A stretch of DNA of 30,627 nucleotides. Origin: Promethearchaeota archaeon. Lineage in GTDB: Archaea; Asgardarchaeota; Lokiarchaeia; Sigyniarchaeales; SOKP01. Under the pieces are notes generated by a model. That model did not search any database. It worked only from the letters and a program-made list of their open reading frames with translations, and was not told the DNA's origin. The stretch is taken from the NCBI GenBank assembly GCA_016926735.1, contig JAFGOA010000044.1, forward strand, positions 1 through 30,627, read 5' to 3'. Numbering within the stretch: position 1 is the first letter of the stretch; each line of letters opens with the position of its first letter. The translations under genes and the position numbers were made by a program. Of this stretch, positions 111 to 19,304 are shown one piece after another.

Positions 111-300
111 AATAGTACCTCACAGCCAGTTTTATACTATTGTATTGAGAGAATTATTTAAAGAAAAAATTAGGATAGGATGCAAAATCCAGTGATTATG
201 TCGCTTCATGAGTTTTATTTCTGAAAAGAATATTCCAAAAATCTCAATAGAAATAGATGTCATATCCTTTTTTTTAGTAAGGGTACTATTTGAACGAATC

Positions 301-7604: not shown

Positions 7605-7833
7605 GATTGTCTTAATAAATATAATTATTATATAAATTATTCCTTGGATTTTTATATCTGCTATTCAAAATAACCAATCTTTATCATCTAATTGCAAAAT
7701 TACACTTATTAGAAGATATATATTAGTATGTTCCAATTATTAATGTGGAATGGTAATATTTTTTTCTTTGATCATTTAGTTCTCCTCAGATTATTATGTA
7801 TTGTACTAATGATAATTAAAATTAATTAATTTA

Positions 7834-8649
7834 TCACCAAGCATAGAGACCCCCTCTTTGGATGTATTTTTTAGGATTATATGTTATTTCATTTAAGGCA
7901 CTTTCTATACCAACTTTAAAGATCGGTCTACTGAAAATATAAGAATTATTCGTATTTTGATAAAATCTCCCATAAGGATCTATCATAAGATATGATTCTA
8001 TCATCATTTGGTTAGTTTCAGCTATAGGTTTTAAGAATAGATGCCTGTTTAAAAAATTCTCAAATTCAGTATTAGAAATTAATAAGTTAGCTATATAGGG
8101 ATGATTTTGATTTTTAATTTCTAGGATTTGGAAGACTTTCCATCTTTCTGGTTTTATCCTTTTAATTAACCAAGATAAATCCTCCTGATAGTTTAATCTA
8201 TTTACAACTGTGTTTATTTTTAGTTTGATCCCAGTTTTATGAATTAAGACTGATCTTTTTATAATTTTTTTTACTAAATTTCCATTTCCTCGCCCTAAAT
8301 TGAAATTAGTTAATTCTAATCCTGAATCTATGCTAAGACCAATCCAATCAATAGATTTGCTAAATTCTTTCAGGAAATTCTTAGTAATTCCGGTTCCATT
8401 TGATATTATTGAGGTAATTAATCCTAAATTTTTACTATATTTTAGTAGATCTCCCAGAAATGGACTTAGAGAGGGTTCTCCACCAGCAAAATTAATTTTT
8501 TTAATGCCTGCATTTGAGATATCATTAATAATTTTAATACATTGATTGAAGGATAATTTAAGATTAGAACTTTCAAAGCGTGCAAAGCAATATTTACACT
8601 TAAAATTGCAATAAGGCCAAAAATGGAAATTAATACTTTCTAATACCAT
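7834..8649 (-). CDS. pVip: Viperin-family antiviral radical SAM enzyme (ddhNTP synthase)
   Basis: SINFHFWPYCNFKCKYCF (CxxxCxxC), KINFAGGEP, KLKINTVV, RWKVFQ, SYLMIDPYGRFYQN and C-terminal RGGLYAW are viperin family motifs. Confidence 0.95.
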   Translation of the reverse strand: MVLESINFHFWPYCNFKCKYCFARFESSNLKLSFNQCIKIINDISNAGIKKINFAGGEPSLSPFLGDLLKYSKNLGLITSIISNGTGITKNFLKEFSKSIDWIGLSIDSGLELTNFNLGRGNGNLVKKIIKRSVLIHKTGIKLKINTVVNRLNYQEDLSWLIKRIKPERWKVFQILEIKNQNHPYIANLLISNTEFENFLNRHLFLKPIAETNQMMIESYLMIDPYGRFYQNTNNSYIFSRPIFKVGIESALNEITYNPKKYIQRGGLYAW

Positions 8650-8682
8650 AAATTAAGTATTAATTTTACCCTTAAAAATTAG

Positions 8683-8702
8683 TCTTTAATGGCAATTAAA
8701 GA
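8683..8702. promoter_or_regulatory. Palindromic operator candidate TCTTTAAT-N4-ATTAAAGA
   Basis: Perfect 8-bp inverted repeat (8683-8690 and 8695-8702) in the divergent spacer between viperin and wHTH-CARF; a third ATTAAAGA half-site lies at 8718-8725. Confidence 0.7.
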
Positions 8703-8704
8703 GT

Positions 8705-8712
8705 ATATAAAA
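8705..8712 (-). promoter_or_regulatory. Putative TATA box of viperin
   Basis: Minus strand reads TTTATAT(A) about 55 nt upstream of the viperin ATG, immediately upstream of the palindrome. Confidence 0.45.
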
Positions 8713-8720
8713 CCACTATT

Positions 8721-8737
8721 AAAGAAATGTTTATAAA
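8721..8737 (+). promoter_or_regulatory. Putative BRE/TATA of the wHTH-CARF gene
   Basis: Purine-rich AAAGAAA followed by TTTATAAA (8730-8737), 22-29 nt upstream of ATG 8759; spacing fits a leaderless archaeal transcript. Confidence 0.55.
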
Positions 8738-8758
8738 TTCACAAACTAATACTTTATT

Positions 8759-9478
8759 ATGAAGATAAGTCTAACAAAGGAAGATTTTTCTGAAAGACAA
8801 ATTCATATTCTAGATTTATTATTCGAAAAAGAATATCAACAGAAGAATCTCCAAGAAGCTTTAAAAACTACAGCACCAAATCTATATTATCACCTAAATA
8901 AATTAGAGGAGTTAGACTTAGTTAAAAAAAATACTTTATATGAAGTAGGAAATGTAAAAATTAATATGATTTCATTAAATCCTGCTTCACGTCAGCAAGT
9001 TAGAAAATTAATTGGCAAAGAAGTCAGTAATTATGTATTAATTACGGGATTTGGAGAATTAAAGACGGGATATAGAGTTCCGGATTTGGTTTATAACATT
9101 TTAATAAAATATCATTATCCAATATCTCGTGTAATTTGTTTTACTTCTCAAGATGCAAAATCTAAAAGAATGGAATTTAAAGAGCAGGAAAATTTAATCG
9201 ATATCGATGAATTTTTTGTATATCCTTATGAAGATTATCGATTTATTGAATCCGGATTTTTTCAATCTATTGAAATAAAAATTAGCGAAGAGATGGAGAC
9301 TGCTAACATTCTTATAGATTTAACTCCATTGAGTAAATTATTTTCATTTAAATTACTTGAACTCGCAAATAAATATCAGATTCCTTGCGTATATCTTGGC
9401 ATGGATAAGCAAGGTAACGATAAATTATATTGGATGTCAAATATGAAAATTGAGGGAAAAATTGAGACATTTGATTAA
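8759..9478 (+). CDS. Transcription regulator: N-terminal winged HTH plus C-terminal CARF-like domain
   Basis: wHTH: RQIHILDLL...QKNLQEALKTTAPNLYYHLNKLEELDLVKK. CARF-like Rossmannoid pattern: VLITGFG, RVICFTSQDA, ILIDLTPLSKLFS (cf. DxTGGxK), IPCVYL. Confidence 0.75.
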   Translation: MKISLTKEDFSERQIHILDLLFEKEYQQKNLQEALKTTAPNLYYHLNKLEELDLVKKNTLYEVGNVKINMISLNPASRQQVRKLIGKEVSNYVLITGFGELKTGYRVPDLVYNILIKYHYPISRVICFTSQDAKSKRMEFKEQENLIDIDEFFVYPYEDYRFIESGFFQSIEIKISEEMETANILIDLTPLSKLFSFKLLELANKYQIPCVYLGMDKQGNDKLYWMSNMKIEGKIETFD

Positions 9479-9529: not shown

Positions 9530-10468
9530 TTGTTCTTAAGATTTAATGGTTTAAACAATGAATTTATGAAAAGAGTTTTTACAAGTAAAAATGAAAAGGA
9601 AGAAATAGAAATTATCGAAAAAAAATATAAATTATTTGAATTATATCATGACGAATTTCTCTTTAGATCATATTACGCTTATTCAATATTAAAAAGAATG
9701 AGATTATTGAAAGAAGTAGCTCTTAAAGCTCAATTTGAAGGGTTAAAAAACTACCTTAAAATATCAGATGAACAAGAAATATTATTTTCTTCTTTTATAA
9801 CACGGGAATATATTTATTTTGTTATGCCTTTTCTAAATACTATATTTATCTTACAAGATCGAATAATGATATTAATCGGTGAGTTTCTTAATATTAATGA
9901 TAAATTTGATAAATTACCAAAATACTACTATGATTATAAAAAAAAAAAAAATAAAATAATATCATTGTTTCCTAAACCACTTCAAACTTTATTAATTAAT
10001 TATTGGGAAAATCATGGAAAATTCATTAGACAATATAGAAATTTAGATCAACATCAATATCAGTTGTATTATCATTCATTTTATAAATTAAAACCCAATG
10101 AAGAGTATGTTATTTATTTACCTGATGAAATAAATCGGAATATGGCTCTACATGAAATAAAATACAAAAATAAAATTGTAGCATTGGACTTTTTTGAGAA
10201 GGAATTTAAAGCATTTCATGATTTTGTAGAAGAGATGTTAGAAAAAATTAAAATTCAACCCTCTGAAATACAACCAGGTTCCTCTTTTAGACCATTAGAA
10301 CATTTAAAAAATTATAAAAACGGAGATATCATCTCAACAATGATTATTGGTAATGAAACAATAGTTTTTCGAATAAACAATGAAAATGATCCAGATTCAG
10401 AAGCTAAACATCTTACTATACAGAAGGTTCCAAATAAAGTATCATCATTTAATTGGAAATTCAGATAA
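9530..10468 (+). CDS. Putative HEPN RNase (Cthe_2314-like pattern); start codon uncertain
   Basis: Helical protein with FLNTIFILQDRI helix and Rx4H motif YRNLDQH (nt 10037-10054). Confidence 0.65.
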   Translation: MFLRFNGLNNEFMKRVFTSKNEKEEIEIIEKKYKLFELYHDEFLFRSYYAYSILKRMRLLKEVALKAQFEGLKNYLKISDEQEILFSSFITREYIYFVMPFLNTIFILQDRIMILIGEFLNINDKFDKLPKYYYDYKKKKNKIISLFPKPLQTLLINYWENHGKFIRQYRNLDQHQYQLYYHSFYKLKPNEEYVIYLPDEINRNMALHEIKYKNKIVALDFFEKEFKAFHDFVEEMLEKIKIQPSEIQPGSSFRPLEHLKNYKNGDIISTMIIGNETIVFRINNENDPDSEAKHLTIQKVPNKVSSFNWKFR

Positions 10469-10647: not shown

Positions 10648-12759
10648 TTGATAAAAATGAAAGTCTTAAAATGTTTAAAATGTGGAAAGGATTATGATCC
10701 AGTTTTTCGAATATATGATAGTAAGGTCTTTTGTCTTAATTGTGAATCATTTCAGATTAAAAAAGAGTTAGGTCCATTTGAAGGGCTCTTCTCAATTGGA
10801 AATAGAAAGGATAAATTAAATCTTTATAAAGCAGTTGATGAGATTAAAAACCCATTTTCAATATTCTGTCATCTCTTAGGTAATCAAGATCAATTTACAG
10901 AAGAATATTTCAAATCTGGATTGTATCCAGTAGAAATTATTCGGAGATGGACATATTCTCAATATCTACTTGAGATTATTTTTAAAAATAAATTATCTAG
11001 GAATAATTTAAAAGATTTAAAAGAAAATCAATATAATATAGAAGAGATAAAGATTGTAAGAGATAAATTATTCTTATTAACTGAAAAGGCATATAGTTAT
11101 GATAGATTTTCTGAAGATTTTAAAAATAATGAATTGATTTATCTTGATAGTGGATCAAAAATAGAACTATATCTTACAAAGGATAAATTCTTTTTTTCGA
11201 CTCCAAATAACATTTATGACGCTCTTATTCAGAAAAATCCTTTCTTTTATAATAATTATGTAATGGAATGCAAGGGATATGCTCCAAATATTCTTATTAA
11301 TGTTGATTCTTCATTGCAAGAATGGTCATTAGCAACTAAAATATATACTGATATTGCCAAATTTGCCTCAATTTATCCTATCAATATCAATGAACTTAAA
11401 TATCCAGAGTTATCTGCTCAGATTTTACAGACTCATGCTTCAGAGGACATAATGAAACCAATATCACCATCATTTCCAATAATCACTATTCCTTTTGATT
11501 ATCAAAATGAGTTCATGGATATATTAAGTCGTTTTGCTGCACTTGGATTCTTTCTGAAAGGAATAGAATATTTAGGAAAAAATTTTCAGGAAAGTTATAA
11601 AGAGACATTTGATTATTTCTCAACTTCATTCAAATTTCGCAGAATTTTTTATTCCTTTGAAGATTGCTATCTTACTACATCTGAAAGATTGGAATTTTTC
11701 TCAAAACTAATAGAAAGTCAATATCAAATCTCAAAAAAAAACGAGAAAAGAAATATTAGAAATTATCGTGGCATGAAAAAATTAGAACATAATATTTGGA
11801 AATTTGGTTTTCATATAAATGTGGATCATATCTTTAAAAATAAAGAACTAATGAGGAACATTAAATTAACCAGTGCGGAGGGAGAATTAGAAGTAGATGT
11901 TGTTTTTTATAATGATAATAAGCTTGAATTTATTGAATGTAAAAGTGATGTTGCTCTTAACCTAGTTAGACAAGAAGAATATTTAAGAAAAATGAGAAAA
12001 AAAATTAAACCTCTTAAAAAATATTTTGAATCAAAAGGATATGAAGTGGAAAAAATAATTCCATCTATGATATGTGAAGTCTGTGTTACTCCCCCTCCCA
12101 AAGACATTGATATTTATCTATCAGAGATGCATCTATTTGAAGTGTTGACCAGAAGAAATGGATTATTTGAATGGGATGGAAATAAATTCTTTGATAAATA
12201 TCCAATAATCGCACGATTAGGATGGGAAAATTATCTTTATTCTGACAATATCAATATTGATTTAAGTTATCTAATACAAAATTCTAAGACTTTTCTGCGC
12301 TCTACCACAATTGATGAATTAATTAATAAATATAAATATAGAAAAGAAGACTTATCAAAATGGAGAAATCTTGATGTATTGTGCATTTATGATGAAAAAA
12401 AAAAAGAAATTATTGATTTTATAATTTTACCCCCATATTATAGGCATAATTATAATGATTCTTACACTTGGGATAAAGCACTTGAATTTCATTCTTCTTA
12501 TTATGGTCAACGGTTTCTTCATATTGCTTCTAAAAATGGAATATTTGGATTTTGTCCAGAGTGTTTAATTTTCCCATTAGTACCAGTAGGATATGCATAT
12601 AAACCTGCAAGGTTTAGTGCAGAAGGAATTTGTCCTAATTGCAATAAATCGATAGAATTAGAAGCTTTTGATAAAGCTAGCTTTCATAAAAATGAGGAAC
12701 TCCTTAAAAAAGTCAAATATTCTTTCGATAAAAGATTAGAACCATATTTAATTGATTGA
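10648..12759 (+). CDS. PD-(D/E)xK nuclease-domain protein with N- and C-terminal Zn ribbons
   Basis: CLKC..CLNC at the N-terminus; GELEVDVVFY...FIECKS catalytic motif; CPEC..CPNC at the C-terminus. Likely start is ATG 10657. Confidence 0.7.
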   Translation: MIKMKVLKCLKCGKDYDPVFRIYDSKVFCLNCESFQIKKELGPFEGLFSIGNRKDKLNLYKAVDEIKNPFSIFCHLLGNQDQFTEEYFKSGLYPVEIIRRWTYSQYLLEIIFKNKLSRNNLKDLKENQYNIEEIKIVRDKLFLLTEKAYSYDRFSEDFKNNELIYLDSGSKIELYLTKDKFFFSTPNNIYDALIQKNPFFYNNYVMECKGYAPNILINVDSSLQEWSLATKIYTDIAKFASIYPININELKYPELSAQILQTHASEDIMKPISPSFPIITIPFDYQNEFMDILSRFAALGFFLKGIEYLGKNFQESYKETFDYFSTSFKFRRIFYSFEDCYLTTSERLEFFSKLIESQYQISKKNEKRNIRNYRGMKKLEHNIWKFGFHINVDHIFKNKELMRNIKLTSAEGELEVDVVFYNDNKLEFIECKSDVALNLVRQEEYLRKMRKKIKPLKKYFESKGYEVEKIIPSMICEVCVTPPPKDIDIYLSEMHLFEVLTRRNGLFEWDGNKFFDKYPIIARLGWENYLYSDNINIDLSYLIQNSKTFLRSTTIDELINKYKYRKEDLSKWRNLDVLCIYDEKKKEIIDFIILPPYYRHNYNDSYTWDKALEFHSSYYGQRFLHIASKNGIFGFCPECLIFPLVPVGYAYKPARFSAEGICPNCNKSIELEAFDKASFHKNEELLKKVKYSFDKRLEPYLID

Positions 12760-15224: not shown

Positions 15225-16349
15225 ATGGAATTAAATAATGGAGAAGAGAATTTATTAATTAAGATCTATATTGGTCAAAGAATTAGATCTGAGGGCCTAG
15301 TAGAAAGTAGTCTAAATTCCGAAGAATTATCCAACATAAAATCTCTTATTGAGAAAAAATTAATAGAAAATTCATATTGGAAACCTTTTAGACACTATAA
15401 TTTATACTTAGTATCAAAGAAAGGAGAAGAGATTGCTAGTATATGTATTCAAAACATACTCGATAAATCTAACATAATAAAAGAAGTTAAAGAAATACCA
15501 TTAATTTTTCTAAAATTATATCTATTCCATGATGTAGATTTTTTTATACATAGAGAAGATCAAGAATTCGCAGAATTTTATTGGGATGAAGGTGAAAGAG
15601 AATTTCTTATAGAAAAAGGACAAGAAAATCGAAAAAAATTAATTAATTTATTTAAACAGCGAAATCTATGTGTCCAAAGCTATGATTATGTCTCAACTAA
15701 TGGAGGAGAATTAAGAGCTAAATATAATATTGTCCCAGAAATAGAAATAAAAGCATTTTTTGATAATACATTTGGTATTAAAGAAGGTCTTTCAGATGAT
15801 ATTCTTAAGCGATTAGTAAATGAACGTCAAGAAATAATTAAAAAAAGAGAAAATCTACTTTTTGAGGAAATTATTGATGATTTTATTCCAAAATATCCGA
15901 AAATAATAATGCAAGATCAAAAAAAAATAATGCCCTTATATGAACAGAAAGGAATATCTATTTTCTTAAGTTATTCAACTGAAGATGAAAAAATATTTCC
16001 AATTGAAGTAATAGCAGGAGAATTAAAAGTATATCATGATATTCAAGATGTCTTTTATTGGGAAAAGGATATGGATGATAATATTGTTGAATATATGGAT
16101 AAATATATAGAAAAGAGCGATATTTTTATATTATTTAGCTCTCCTAATGCAAAACTTTCGGAACAAGTTAAAAAAGAATGGACTGCAGCTGAAAGCTCAG
16201 ATAAAATAATAATACCCATTTTTGAAGTTAAAGAAGATATACCCACATTATTGAAACCAAGACGTGGGTTAAAATTCGATATCCTTAATCTTTCAAGATT
16301 CATTAATGAATTACATAAATTGATATTGAAAAAGCTAAAAATTGAGTAA
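15225..16349 (+). CDS. TIR-domain protein (C-terminal TIR, possible N-terminal wHTH)
   Basis: SIFLSYS, VFYWE, IEKSDIFILFSSPNAKLSEQVKKEW (catalytic-position Glu), KIIIPI. Confidence 0.88.
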   Translation: MELNNGEENLLIKIYIGQRIRSEGLVESSLNSEELSNIKSLIEKKLIENSYWKPFRHYNLYLVSKKGEEIASICIQNILDKSNIIKEVKEIPLIFLKLYLFHDVDFFIHREDQEFAEFYWDEGEREFLIEKGQENRKKLINLFKQRNLCVQSYDYVSTNGGELRAKYNIVPEIEIKAFFDNTFGIKEGLSDDILKRLVNERQEIIKKRENLLFEEIIDDFIPKYPKIIMQDQKKIMPLYEQKGISIFLSYSTEDEKIFPIEVIAGELKVYHDIQDVFYWEKDMDDNIVEYMDKYIEKSDIFILFSSPNAKLSEQVKKEWTAAESSDKIIIPIFEVKEDIPTLLKPRRGLKFDILNLSRFINELHKLILKKLKIE

Positions 16350-17369: not shown

Positions 17370-19304
17370 TTGTCTGTAATTACAATGTTGATTAAAACTG
17401 TGATAATAAATAATCTAAGATGTTGTAAGGAAGTAAAATTTAATTGTGACTCTCTAGTAGGATTAATCGGTAAAAATAATGTAGGAAAATCAACAATTAT
17501 TGAAGGAATAAAAAGTTTTTTTCGATCTTCAAAATCATATAATTCTGATGATTATTATGATAGTTCAAAAGCTATAAAAATTAATTTAATTTTTCATAAA
17601 CTCCACACTAAAGAATTAGAACAATTTAAAAAATATTATTACAATAACGAACTAAGTTTAACACGTATTGAATCAATTGAAGGAAGTATTAGATTTATAG
17701 GAGTGAAAAAACAAATACCTGAATTTATAGAAATAAGAAAAAAGAAGTTAGCACCAGAAAGGATAAAAGCATATCGAGAACTTTATAAGAATGCTATATA
17801 TGAAAACATGCCTGAACCAGATACAGCATGGGGTAGATTAGAAATAAAAATGCAGGAATTTGAAGAAGGATTTTCCGAAGAAGAAACAGAATTAACAGAT
17901 TCGGAAATTTCATTTATTCAAAATACACCCTTTGGAGATGAGACTGCAAGTGAAACCACTAAAATAATTTATATTCCATCTTTTTATGATATATCAAGTG
18001 AAACAATACATACGAGAGGAATTATTCAACGAATATTCAATGATTATATCAATTCATGTATTGAAGATGATAAAGAATTCCAAGAAAAACTAGAAAAAGT
18101 AGAAAATGAGATTGATAATTTATATAGGAAAAAAAGGAGACCTCTGCATTCCGAATTTATGGAAAAATTAAATAATTCTTTAAAAACATATACTGTAGAT
18201 CTTCAATGTTCAATTGACATAGATGAAATTAAATCGAATATACGATTTCCTCAACCAAGGATAACTTTTGAAGATCAATACATAAAAACAAATATTGAGA
18301 AGCAGGGAATGGGTACACAAAGATCAATTTTATTTGGATTATTTAATTTTTGGACCCAAATTACACATGAGTTATCTAATAATTCATCAGATCTACAAAA
18401 ATTAGATATTATTATGCTTATTGAAGAACCTGAAATATATATGCATCCATCAAAATGCAAGTATTTATTTAATTTATTTACAAATTTAACAGAAAGTGAA
18501 GGAAGTAACTCAGTTAATTTCCAAATTATTTATACAACACATTCTTCTTATTTCTTAAATATTATAGAGTATAATTTTATCAAATTAATAAGAAAAAAAA
18601 ATAACAGTTCAGAACATCCTCTCACAACAATAGTATCAGAATTAGATAAGGAATTTTTTATTAAAAAATATTGTAAGGAATTTTCTTGTGATTCCTCTGT
18701 TGTTACTAATCAATCAATTTGGATAAGACATTTATCTAAAATATCTAATTCATTTAATGAAGGTTTTTTTGCCAATAAGATCATATTAGTTGAGGGAAGA
18801 TCAGATTTATCATATTATTATTATCTTCAAAGTTATTTAAAATATGATTTTAATCATGAGAATATATGTTTCATTAAAGTAGATGGTAAAGAAAAATTAA
18901 AGTATATTCATTTTCTTTATTCATTATATAATATCCCTATTTTTATAATATGGGATGGTGATATTCATAATAAGGGAAACGTGTCAGCAAAATCCGCTCA
19001 AAAAAATAAAGAACTATTAAAAATAATTGGAGAGAAGGAAAAAGATTTTCCTGATAATTCTGTATATGATAAAGGTGCTATTTTTAAAGATACAATTGAA
19101 GAATATATTAAAGCAGAATTAGGTGATACAGACTTTAATAAAATCAGGAAAGATGTTGTTGATAAATTTAATTTACATGGATATGATAACCTTGAAAAAA
19201 ATTCTGAATTTGCGTATAATTTGATAGAAAGAATATATTCTGAGGGAAAAAAATTACCTTTTTTGGAAGAAATTATTCATAAAATTGCAGAAAAACAGTC
19301 CTAA
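17370..19304 (+). CDS. OLD-family ATP-dependent nuclease (ABC ATPase plus TOPRIM; GajA-like)
   Basis: Walker A GKNNVGKS, signature QGMGTQR, Walker B LIEEPEIYMHP, H-loop TTHS, TOPRIM ILVEGRSD and DGD. Likely start is ATG 17385. Confidence 0.92.
   Translation: MSVITMLIKTVIINNLRCCKEVKFNCDSLVGLIGKNNVGKSTIIEGIKSFFRSSKSYNSDDYYDSSKAIKINLIFHKLHTKELEQFKKYYYNNELSLTRIESIEGSIRFIGVKKQIPEFIEIRKKKLAPERIKAYRELYKNAIYENMPEPDTAWGRLEIKMQEFEEGFSEEETELTDSEISFIQNTPFGDETASETTKIIYIPSFYDISSETIHTRGIIQRIFNDYINSCIEDDKEFQEKLEKVENEIDNLYRKKRRPLHSEFMEKLNNSLKTYTVDLQCSIDIDEIKSNIRFPQPRITFEDQYIKTNIEKQGMGTQRSILFGLFNFWTQITHELSNNSSDLQKLDIIMLIEEPEIYMHPSKCKYLFNLFTNLTESEGSNSVNFQIIYTTHSSYFLNIIEYNFIKLIRKKNNSSEHPLTTIVSELDKEFFIKKYCKEFSCDSSVVTNQSIWIRHLSKISNSFNEGFFANKIILVEGRSDLSYYYYLQSYLKYDFNHENICFIKVDGKEKLKYIHFLYSLYNIPIFIIWDGDIHNKGNVSAKSAQKNKELLKIIGEKEKDFPDNSVYDKGAIFKDTIEEYIKAELGDTDFNKIRKDVVDKFNLHGYDNLEKNSEFAYNLIERIYSEGKKLPFLEEIIHKIAEKQS

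Follow-up and report, generated by a model that had tools for sequence, protein, structure and literature searches.

A 30,627-nt stretch of DNA from a Promethearchaeota archaeon (contig JAFGOA010000044.1 of assembly GCA_016926735.1, positions 1-30,627; the whole stretch is called the window below) carries a gene for a prokaryotic viperin (pVip) and, divergent from it, a gene for a 239-aa protein in which a winged helix-turn-helix (wHTH) precedes a CARF domain. We consider it reasonably probable that this protein is a dimeric, ligand-gated and autoregulated transcription factor, the hub of a defence locus whose cargo genes are swapped, and that it controls both of the promoters lying between the two genes. 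The link between regulator and viperin is real, not exclusive, and the pairing is not one of chance. The sensor domain of the regulator being of the type that binds cyclic-nucleotide alarm signals, the viperin of this archaeon is probably switched by a signal, much as in animals. The first-pass annotation, made from the sequence of the window, had proposed that the regulator couples a nucleotide messenger to viperin transcription; the CARF fold, the recurrence of the pair and the conserved promoter and operator speak for that proposal, whereas the regulator turned out not to be specific to viperin and its own genome yielded no signal maker.

A predicted CARF transcription factor beside an intact viperin

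The two genes lie head to head across a gap of 109 bp (Table 1), as had been annotated, and the viperin is indeed intact. Its translation has the CxxxCxxC motif of radical S-adenosylmethionine (radical-SAM) enzymes at C14/C18/C21, and it matches the NCBIfam model NF038283 (viperin_w_prok) with 287 bits against a cut-off of 180, over profile positions 3-280 of 281. PADLOC pVip (1.2e-86) and Pfam Radical_SAM (2.2e-17) recognise it as well, and the motif together with the full-length match to a curated model places it among the pVips, a group defined in function by the making of 3'-deoxy-3',4'-didehydronucleoside triphosphates (ddhNTPs) and by protection against viruses.

In the divergent protein, residues 12-57 match Pfam HTH_5 (ArsR) with 29.5 bits (cut-off 22), in agreement with the N-terminal wHTH of the first-pass annotation, and no Pfam or NCBIfam family matched the C-terminal 150 residues. 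The PADLOC profile PDLC01987 (CARF_m5--CARF) matches the regulator nearly end to end (1e-14, 53 bits; residues 28-216 on profile positions 20-189 of 195) and was found in all 35 family members, with a best E-value of 5.7e-19 and with both the HTH end and the CARF domain covered. Two CARF-like motifs had been pointed out, and both are present, LITGFG at residues 94-99 and DLTPLSK at residues 187-193; in an alignment of 35 homologues with identities down to 43%, G97, G99, D187, T189, P190 and K193 are invariant and T96 is nearly so. The window copy keeps every invariant residue. CARF domains have been described as carrying an S/T where strand 1 ends and, behind strand 4, the signature [DN]X[ST]XXX[RK] (Makarova et al. 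2014, PMC4012209, in the parts available to us), and in the regulator T96 ends strand 1 and D187xT189xxxK193 follows strand 4.

The AlphaFold2 (AF2) model of the regulator (predicted local distance difference test, pLDDT, 93.0; predicted template modelling score, pTM, 0.86) begins with a winged helix and continues into a Rossmann-like domain of six strands that closes in a strand-5/6 hairpin, the strands running over residues 92-97, 122-129, 151-154, 183-187, 210-215 and 221-225. When the model was compared with the PDB by Foldseek, CARF proteins that bind cyclic oligoadenylate (cOA) came out on top for the C-terminal half, with about 145 aligned columns and a root-mean-square deviation (rmsd) of 3.9-5.8; the top entries were TtCsm6 5fsh (7.6e-5), Card1 6wxw/6xl1, Cam1 8t66/8t65, Can2 8bao/7bdv and EiCsm6 6tug, and Cdn1 8z4i/9u49 aligned over 145 columns with an rmsd of 3.9. 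The modelled strands and these matches agree with the published definition of the CARF fold (PMC4012209, same parts). For the N-terminal part the best matches were MarR/ArsR proteins, and a sequence search of the PDB with the family profile returned only ArsR/MarR HTH domains, the CARF half being unmatched.

A two-copy model of the regulator scored 0.44, against 0.00 for the best of three controls; of 30 proteins whose solved structure is a pair of one chain, 20 attained the mark applied to this score, as did 1 of 23 whose solved structure is a single chain. Between runs at least 91% of the contacts agreed, with a pLDDT of at least 82, and the modelled interface lies wholly within the CARF domain and includes the pocket residues 188-189 and 193-194. 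The homodimer with its pocket on the two-fold axis, a mark of CARF proteins, is seen in the model only, and the pass may partly reflect likeness to CARF dimers that have already been solved. The modelled fold and dimer, which are what the first-pass annotation had suggested looking for, together with the motif pattern indicate that the C-terminal domain is a true CARF domain with a ligand-pocket signature.

Recurrence of the pair across loci and genomes

A database search returned 79 homologues of the regulator, which come from Promethearchaeota/Lokiarchaeia wherever the source is named, apart from two marine-sediment metagenome records and one 'archaeon'; this fits the Asgard origin that had been suspected for the window. 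The family is small, since an exhaustive profile search of 1.84 billion representatives yielded 113 proteins at E<=1e-3, of which 22 reach E<=1e-30.

We gathered 7 genome loci and 28 metagenome loci of the regulator (labelled L; genomes of the survey are labelled G). Of the 32 that have at least 300 nt upstream of the regulator, 14 have pVip, or what is left of it, as the next gene on the divergent side (tblastn), ten of them with an intact or contig-end-cut gene (L007, L009, L010, L011, L014, L015, L018, L022, L023 and L027, of which L022 and L023 are near-duplicates) and four with a degraded one (L002, L003, L012 and L016). Seen from the other side, 23 of 27 viperin loci of the phylum have no regulator nearby, and most viperins of the phylum thus do without one. 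In a survey of 400 genomes of the phylum, viperin passes the cut-off in 26 and the regulator profile matches 18 at 1e-10; about 12 of these matches cover the whole length, they all belong to the window's class, and three relatives of the same genus have none, a distribution that marks the regulator as a patchy accessory gene. Regulator and pVip are adjacent in 4 of 13 carrier genomes (G000, G161, G134 and G139), and both are present, apart from each other, in G140 and G138. In G134 the two proteins are 40% (regulator) and 43% (pVip) identical to those of the window and their genes are still divergent neighbours. In a maximum-likelihood tree of 33 viperins, the 11 that are linked fall into two deep clades, which calls for at least four changes of linkage.

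A mirrored promoter with two candidate operator boxes

The spacer measures 109-111 bp in the 14 pVip-linked loci, which align without gaps, and a repeat search found mirror symmetry across the whole of it. It contains two candidate operator boxes (O1 and O2, Table 1), each a palindrome of 16 bp (TTTAAY-N4-RTTAAA) whose core is rich in GC, and their outer 13-nt units (TTTAAYGGCSRTT), which are strongly conserved, make up an inverted pair with an offset of 26 nt. A C(C/T)TTAAAAAT block stands at the same position in all aligned spacers. Both predicted TATA elements lie 21-22 nt before an ATG, which, from what is known of archaeal promoters, would make the mRNAs leaderless or nearly so. A scan for sigma-70 promoters gave 45 against 43.1 expected, the chance level, as expected for an archaeon.

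A position weight matrix (PWM) was built from the 13-nt units and 33 regulator loci were scanned with it. The inverted pair occurs at -75/-49 from the regulator ATG in 25 of them, the box at -75 being of the O1 type; these are all 14 viperin-linked loci and 11 with another or unjudged divergent partner. The pair is absent from L004, L008, L013, L019, L030, L031 and L032, in several of which the regulator gene lacks its 5' end or is embedded in an operon on the same strand; a different palindrome is found in L030 and L031, and L034 has a single operator match. At the viperin loci without regulator no operator match of at least 13 bits was found (23 of 23). Because the operator occurs with other partners and is absent from regulator-less viperin loci, it is a property of the regulator gene and not of viperin, and this tie implies autoregulation. 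The 3.88-Mb genome to which the window belongs holds 64 single matches, equal to the chance rate (16 per Mb simulated), and this spacer is its only inverted pair. One strong single match, considered as a further regulon site (C65:13496), lies unpaired inside an open reading frame (ORF) and was taken as chance.

From this arrangement the regulator is predicted to bind the boxes. Archaeal activators bind just upstream of the transcription factor B recognition element (BRE) and TATA box, and we lean towards activation rather than derepression because both boxes sit just upstream of the presumed BRE/TATA of each promoter.

Interchangeable cargo on both sides of the regulator

The regulator is not viperin-specific; viperin is the commonest of several divergent cargoes that are swapped against one another. 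In L024, L025 and L028 the divergent position is held by a ThiC-family radical-SAM gene at 109-111 bp with the same operator. This gene shares 31-39% identity with the ThiC that most genomes of the order carry. Its close relatives are confined to 2 of 154 genomes, one of which (G175) has an ordinary ThiC too; that it is simply the housekeeping ThiC flanking an insertion site was rejected as the sole explanation on these figures, and it may represent an uncommon accessory paralogue that was drawn into defence. In L005, L006 and L029 the divergent partner is a small and strongly basic ORF of about 41 aa; two of these loci also carry a cyclase gene. Other divergent ORFs are found in L017, L020 and L026, the contig of L021 has no upstream sequence, and upstream of L035 the N-terminal codons of pVip can be made out by eye, tblastn having reported no pVip there.

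The genes directly 3' of the regulator vary as well, among TPR proteins, CD-NTases, helicases and a STAND NTPase (Table 1). On the far side of pVip a MkoA-like helicase, a further gene and sometimes a phospholipase D (PLD) nuclease often follow (L010, L014, L016 and L027). Among distant family members the defence neighbours are a divergent CARF-PIN effector (G125), a HerA-like ATPase (G280), a calcineurin-like phosphoesterase (G138) and an Hhe-like helicase-nuclease (G134).

Possible sources of the signal

In L005, L007, L026 and L029 a CD-NTase of 261-276 aa is encoded within about 25 nt 3' of the regulator gene. These cyclases match PADLOC Cyclase (best 2.7e-23), reach 25.8 bits with Pfam SMODS, just below its cut-off of 26.5, and have intact GS...DxD...D nucleotidyltransferase motifs; in L007 (G161) pVip, regulator and cyclase stand together in 2.5 kb. 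Among the 13 carrier genomes a Cas10 palm is found in 8, a cyclase in 6 and at least one of the two in 9, and in G232 the contig with the regulator also carries a Cas10 gene, 13 kb away from it. Within the order, 8 of 12 carriers have the Cas10 palm (PF22335), compared with 15 of 142 non-carriers (odds ratio 17, Fisher p = 2.5e-5), an enrichment that is indicative only, as it spans related, non-independent genomes and carriers defined by one profile search. Because a CD-NTase adjoins the regulator in four loci and carriers are enriched for Cas10, a link of the regulator to nucleotide signalling is plausible.

A preprint on cultured Lokiarchaea reports a strain whose proteome contained nearly all of its defence proteins, pVip excepted (10.64898/2026.02.13.705702, in the parts available to us); this absence would fit a viperin that is not expressed constitutively. 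As a separate observation, a relative that matches the CARF part only (G241:C83:8112-11954; profile 70-214, 6.9e-11) is encoded about 3 kb from a gene with a Cas10 palm domain.

Proposed mechanism and its alternatives

In the mechanism that we propose, the CARF domains would dimerise, form a nucleotide pocket at the dimer axis and bind a ligand there, and the winged helices of the dimer would bind each of the 16-bp palindromes between the back-to-back archaeal TATA boxes, so placed that ligand occupancy would alter the output of both promoters. Two units would be under control, pVip on one side and the regulator gene with its following cargo on the other (here orf312 and probably orf703). The likeliest ligand would be a cyclic oligonucleotide from a CD-NTase or Cas10, made during infection, and within this mechanism we give such a ligand roughly an even chance. 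Viperin and the right-hand cargo would then be induced or derepressed as a second line of defence. The cassette is modular, the same regulator and operator occurring in Lokiarchaeia with differing cargo on either side.

Several observations weigh against this reading. The genome of the window (238 contigs, with a completeness of 99.3% estimated from marker genes) yielded no match to Csm1 TIGR02578, Cmr2 TIGR02577 or the Cas10 palm PF22335, and none to SMODS PF18144, PADLOC Cyclase PDLC00823 or the L007 cyclase protein; the search for a type III CRISPR or CBASS (cyclic-oligonucleotide-based antiphage signalling system) signal maker that the original proposal had called for thus came back empty for both Cas10 and CD-NTase, and as regards known signal makers the regulator is an orphan in its own genome. 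Four of the 13 carriers (this genome, G138, G280 and G125) have neither Cas10 nor cyclase, and the non-independence of the genomes behind the Cas10 enrichment belongs here too. The boxes of the window are the weakest of all loci (O1 15.7 and O2 12.0 bits, against 15-23.5 elsewhere), which could be a sign of decay. Autoregulation alone would explain the conservation of the operator, and control of the divergent gene is read from promoter geometry.

The absence of Cas10 and CD-NTase from this genome and three other carriers would suit a different role, that of a local metabolite or damage sensor whose CARF pocket binds something that the enzyme next door makes or uses up, such as a ddhNTP, CTP, 5'-deoxyadenosine or S-adenosylmethionine, or else, as in RtcR, RNA ends with a 2',3'-cyclic phosphate (2',3'-cP), and which would serve as a divergent feedback or substrate regulator. 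Both identified left-hand enzymes, pVip and the ThiC-like protein, are nucleotide-acting radical-SAM enzymes encoded 109-111 bp away, and the gene 3' of the regulator is HEPN-like here; HEPN RNases leave 2',3'-cP ends. We nevertheless judge this role unlikely. The operator and regulator are also found with the small basic ORF, TPR protein, helicases and STAND NTPases, a cyclase gene follows directly in four loci, and Cas10 co-occurs. The invariant K193 after strand 4 is moreover typical of nucleotide-binding CARFs and mostly missing in the RtcR family (PMC4012209, same parts).

Still less probable, in our estimation, is a ligand-independent autorepressor or an orphaned, decaying copy, in which the CARF domain would be a dimerisation module only, viperin would be constitutive, at a level given by the strength of its promoter, and the pairing a legacy of the island. 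The operator tracks the regulator gene whatever the partner, the O2 box of the window is degenerate, its genome yielded no signal synthase, and pVip has decayed beside an intact regulator in L002, L003, L012 and L016, all of which such a history would account for. Invariance of six pocket residues (G97, G99, D187, T189, P190 and K193) in 35 proteins down to 43% identity would be hard to explain for a mere scaffold, however, the window copy retains all of them, and the divergent TATA block conserved in all spacers points to a maintained divergent transcript. That two genes of a defence island merely came to lie side by side, without any functional link, is very unlikely: the window is a dense defence island, island genes are often neighbours, and most pVip loci of the phylum (23 of 27) have no regulator, yet the 109-111 bp spacer and mirrored promoter elements are fixed in 14 loci with differing flanking genes, and the two genes are still paired where the proteins have only 40-43% identity, as well as in two deep clades of pVip.

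Beyond the ligand-gated, autoregulated factor that we prefer, we put forward only tentatively, as a possibility that we would not yet call probable, that a portable Lokiarchaeial inducible-promoter cassette, made up of a wHTH-CARF receptor and a mirrored two-operator promoter, gives cyclic-oligonucleotide signalling a transcriptional output. If this were true, an L007-type chain of cGAS-like CD-NTase, CARF factor and viperin would be a prokaryotic counterpart of the messenger-driven induction of interferon-stimulated genes, sitting in the archaeal lineage closest to eukaryotes, and other cargo would be driven too, such as the ThiC-like paralogue, maybe an antiviral enzyme, not yet described, that modifies nucleotides. 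Now that operator, promoter and a candidate source of the ligand (the L007-type cyclase) are defined, the idea can be tested in vitro.

The defence island and neighbouring genes

Pfam and PADLOC scans of the ORFs depict the window as a dense defence island with an LRR/TPR protein, a 1036-aa TPR protein, viperin, the wHTH-CARF regulator, orf312, orf703, a TIR protein, an OLD/Gabija-like ATPase and a type I restriction-modification system. Neither a cas gene nor a CD-NTase came up when all ORFs of 90 aa or more in the window were scanned with Pfam, which upholds the earlier statement that cas10 and CD-NTase are missing from it. The features discussed here are collected in Table 1.

Table 1. Features of the viperin-regulator locus in the window and of related loci (positions without a locus label refer to the window)
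Feature	Position	Strand	Remarks
pVip, 271 aa, intact radical-SAM enzyme	7834..8649	-	ORF; NF038283; PADLOC pVip; Pfam Radical_SAM
wHTH-CARF regulator, 239 aa	8759..9478	+	ArsR-type wHTH at about residues 10-75 (nt 8786-8983); CARF at about residues 90-230 (nt 9026-9448)
CARF pocket signature D187-L-T189-P-L-S-K193	9317..9337	+	Directly after strand 4; D187, T189, P190 and K193 invariant in 35
Bidirectional promoter region, 109 bp, mirror-symmetric	8650..8758	.	Common to pVip and regulator; covered from end to end by the inverted repeats I1, I2 and I4
Predicted TATA-like element of pVip	8671..8679	-	Reads ATTTTTAAG, about 22 nt 5' of the pVip ATG; role assigned from position
Candidate operator box O1, TTTAAT-GGCA-ATTAAA, 16-bp palindrome	8685..8700	.	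PWM 15.7 bits at 8685; palindrome I4
Candidate operator box O2	8708..8723	.	Degenerate here: right arm ATTAAA intact, left arm and GC core drifted; PWM 12.0 bits at 8711, minus strand, weakest of all loci
Predicted TATA box TTTATAAA of regulator gene	8730..8737	+	21 nt 5' of its ATG; position conserved; putative function
TPR protein, 1036 aa	4494..7604	-	Downstream of pVip; Pfam TPR families; PADLOC PDLC02907 'TPR' 4.4e-20
orf312, HEPN-like lead only	9530..10468	+	52 bp 3' of regulator gene; invariant R170-N-L-D-Q-H175
orf703, rare protein	10648..12759	+	Cys pairs at N and C termini; weak Card1-type PD-(D/E)xK match at about residues 394-450
ThiC-family gene	L024 1-878; L025 923-2206; L028 1-881	-	Pfam PF01964 4.6e-110
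ThiC-like relatives	G175:C174:2026-3300; G150:C311:2413-3666		
Small basic ORF	L005 ~7740-7865; L006 ~7740-7865; L029 ~130-270	-	GAGGT-like site ahead
1036-aa TPR-protein homologue	L002, L003, L004, L015, L021, L032		Directly 3' of regulator
CD-NTase	L005, L007, L026, L029		Directly 3' of regulator
~490-aa protein, then orf312 homologue	L012, L027		Directly 3' of regulator
MkoA-like superfamily 1 (SF1) helicases	L030, L031; also L008		Directly 3' of regulator; L008 with PLD nuclease
1631-aa STAND NTPase	L019		Directly 3' of regulator

Homologues of the TPR protein that follows pVip adjoin the 3' end of the regulator gene in six other loci (tblastn, clustering; Table 1), which makes it part of the same shuffling module; for its N-terminal 720 residues only TPR-like look-alikes and no enzymatic domain were found. 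On the other side, orf312 is probably co-transcribed with the regulator gene. No Pfam or NCBIfam family matched it, its atlas look-alikes include Cthe_2314-like HEPN clusters (0.94-0.95), and its RNLDQH sequence (Rx4H, a HEPN-like motif) is invariant in four homologues; homologues are found near the regulator in L012, L014 and L027. With these look-alikes and one motif, the HEPN-like nature of orf312 is a lead only, and together with the CARF protein upstream it would resemble a Csm6 split over two genes. The following orf703 has four homologues in 5.8 billion sequences, with the Cys pairs conserved at both ends; it gave 0.012 with Pfam Card1_endonuc, below the cut-off, and 4.9e-4 with PADLOC CARF_PDDEXK, and its AF2 model (pLDDT 41) was too low for a fold search.

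Further along the island, a 374-aa TIR protein (15225-16349) has a C-terminal TIR_2 domain (8.7e-12), and a 644-aa OLD/Gabija-like ATPase-TOPRIM protein (17370-19304) matches PADLOC Old (1.6e-51); the two genes are 6-9 kb from the regulator gene. Where Cas10 and CD-NTase are missing, the TIR enzyme could be an alternative source of a nucleotide signal.

Several side observations concern related loci. Beside viperin or the regulator a set recurs that consists of a MkoA-like SF1 helicase of about 790 aa and a protein of about 390 aa, joined in L016 and L008 by a PLD nuclease of about 510 aa; this helicase set, including that of L008 (3319-8411), is reminiscent of Mokosh. The L002 contig (JANBVM010000002.1) is labelled 'Patescibacteria group bacterium' and has a regulator with 68% identity, a viperin remnant and a 1046-aa TPR protein in the Lokiarchaeial arrangement, its regulator frame being seemingly interrupted (86-aa ORF); the contig is probably mis-binned. 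A regulator copy at G135:C1:3466648-3467367 (L086) contains two in-frame TAA stops, stands among metabolic genes for a flavoprotein and a pterin-binding protein, and is likely a pseudogene.

Comparison with known systems

Prokaryotic viperins have been treated as stand-alone enzymes, and their control is not addressed in the Asgard viperin papers searched. The main text of Leao 2024 (PMC11291487), in the parts available to us, mentions no HTH, regulator, CARF, operon or gene neighbour, its supplementary tables being a place where neighbours may be listed; likewise, the available parts of the Shomar preprint (10.1101/2023.09.13.557418), in which the neighbourhood analysis deals with kinases, mention no HTH, regulator or CARF, and its supplement may list neighbours. 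None of the literature matches listed for a CARF-regulated viperin was on topic, and for the wHTH-CARF or CARF-HTH architecture only the Steens review turned up. As far as these searches reach, the pairing with viperin, the two-box operator in a mirrored archaeal promoter, the cargo swapping and the adjacent CD-NTase are new.

The architecture itself has already been catalogued as a minor CARF family in PADLOC, CARF_m5, which all 35 members match, the modest scores (53 bits for the window protein) marking a distant branch. This family we take to stem from the Makarova 2020 CARF census; neither a paper naming CARF_m5 nor a link of it to viperin was found in the literature searched, the scope of which did not include that census.

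With the animal RSAD2 the locus shares the enzyme family placed under inducible control and, in L007-type loci, an upstream maker that is a cGAS-like nucleotidyltransferase. The likeness is one of logic only, the regulatory chain not being homologous and induction here being presumed; if the mechanism is true, signal-induced viperin existed in Asgard archaea.

In the four loci where a cyclase gene comes next after the sensor gene (L005, L007, L026 and L029), the layout is that of a minimal two-gene CBASS. The 'effector', however, would be a CARF transcription factor, with no SAVED/STING and no killing domain, and in the window and its genome, unlike in those four loci, no cyclase was found.

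Transcriptional control of defence genes by a ligand-sensing regulator whose gene adjoins them, or by a cOA trigger, is also exerted by BrxR/CapW (WYL) and by the CalpL-CalpT-CalpS pathway from cyclic tetra-adenylate (cA4) to a sigma factor, both of which are bacterial and use other sensor folds (WYL, SAVED-protease). To our knowledge, neither controls a viperin. In RtcR, a CARF-AAA+-HTH activator of rtcBA, a CARF domain likewise controls transcription outside CRISPR loci, but the 239-aa regulator lacks the AAA+ sigma-54 module, and K193 is invariant in it whereas most RtcR CARFs have no basic residue after strand 4 (PMC4012209, same parts).

The closest parallel is Csa3 (Csa3a/Csa3b) of Sulfolobales, a cA4-binding CARF transcription factor that relays cOA to the transcription of defence genes (PMC9704534; PMC8699464) and has been called, in a 2022 review, the only characterised non-nuclease CARF effector (PMC9704534), as far as the parts of these articles available to us go. 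Both proteins have a CARF sensor and a winged-helix DNA-binding domain, and the PADLOC Csa3 model is matched by 30 of the 35 family members, via the HTH part only. The order is CARF-wHTH in Csa3 and wHTH-CARF here; the cas-locus context of Csa3 is not shared, with no cas family in the window and no Cas10 in the genome; the target is a viperin or variable-cargo promoter and not cas or repair genes; and the wHTH-CARF family is restricted to Lokiarchaeia. A second, inverted CARF transcription factor outside CRISPR loci would widen the known scope of cyclic-oligonucleotide signalling, which, if our reading is true, turns on further defences rather than only killing or arresting the cell. The regulator follows the same principle as Csa3, in which a DNA-binding domain is driven by a CARF sensor.

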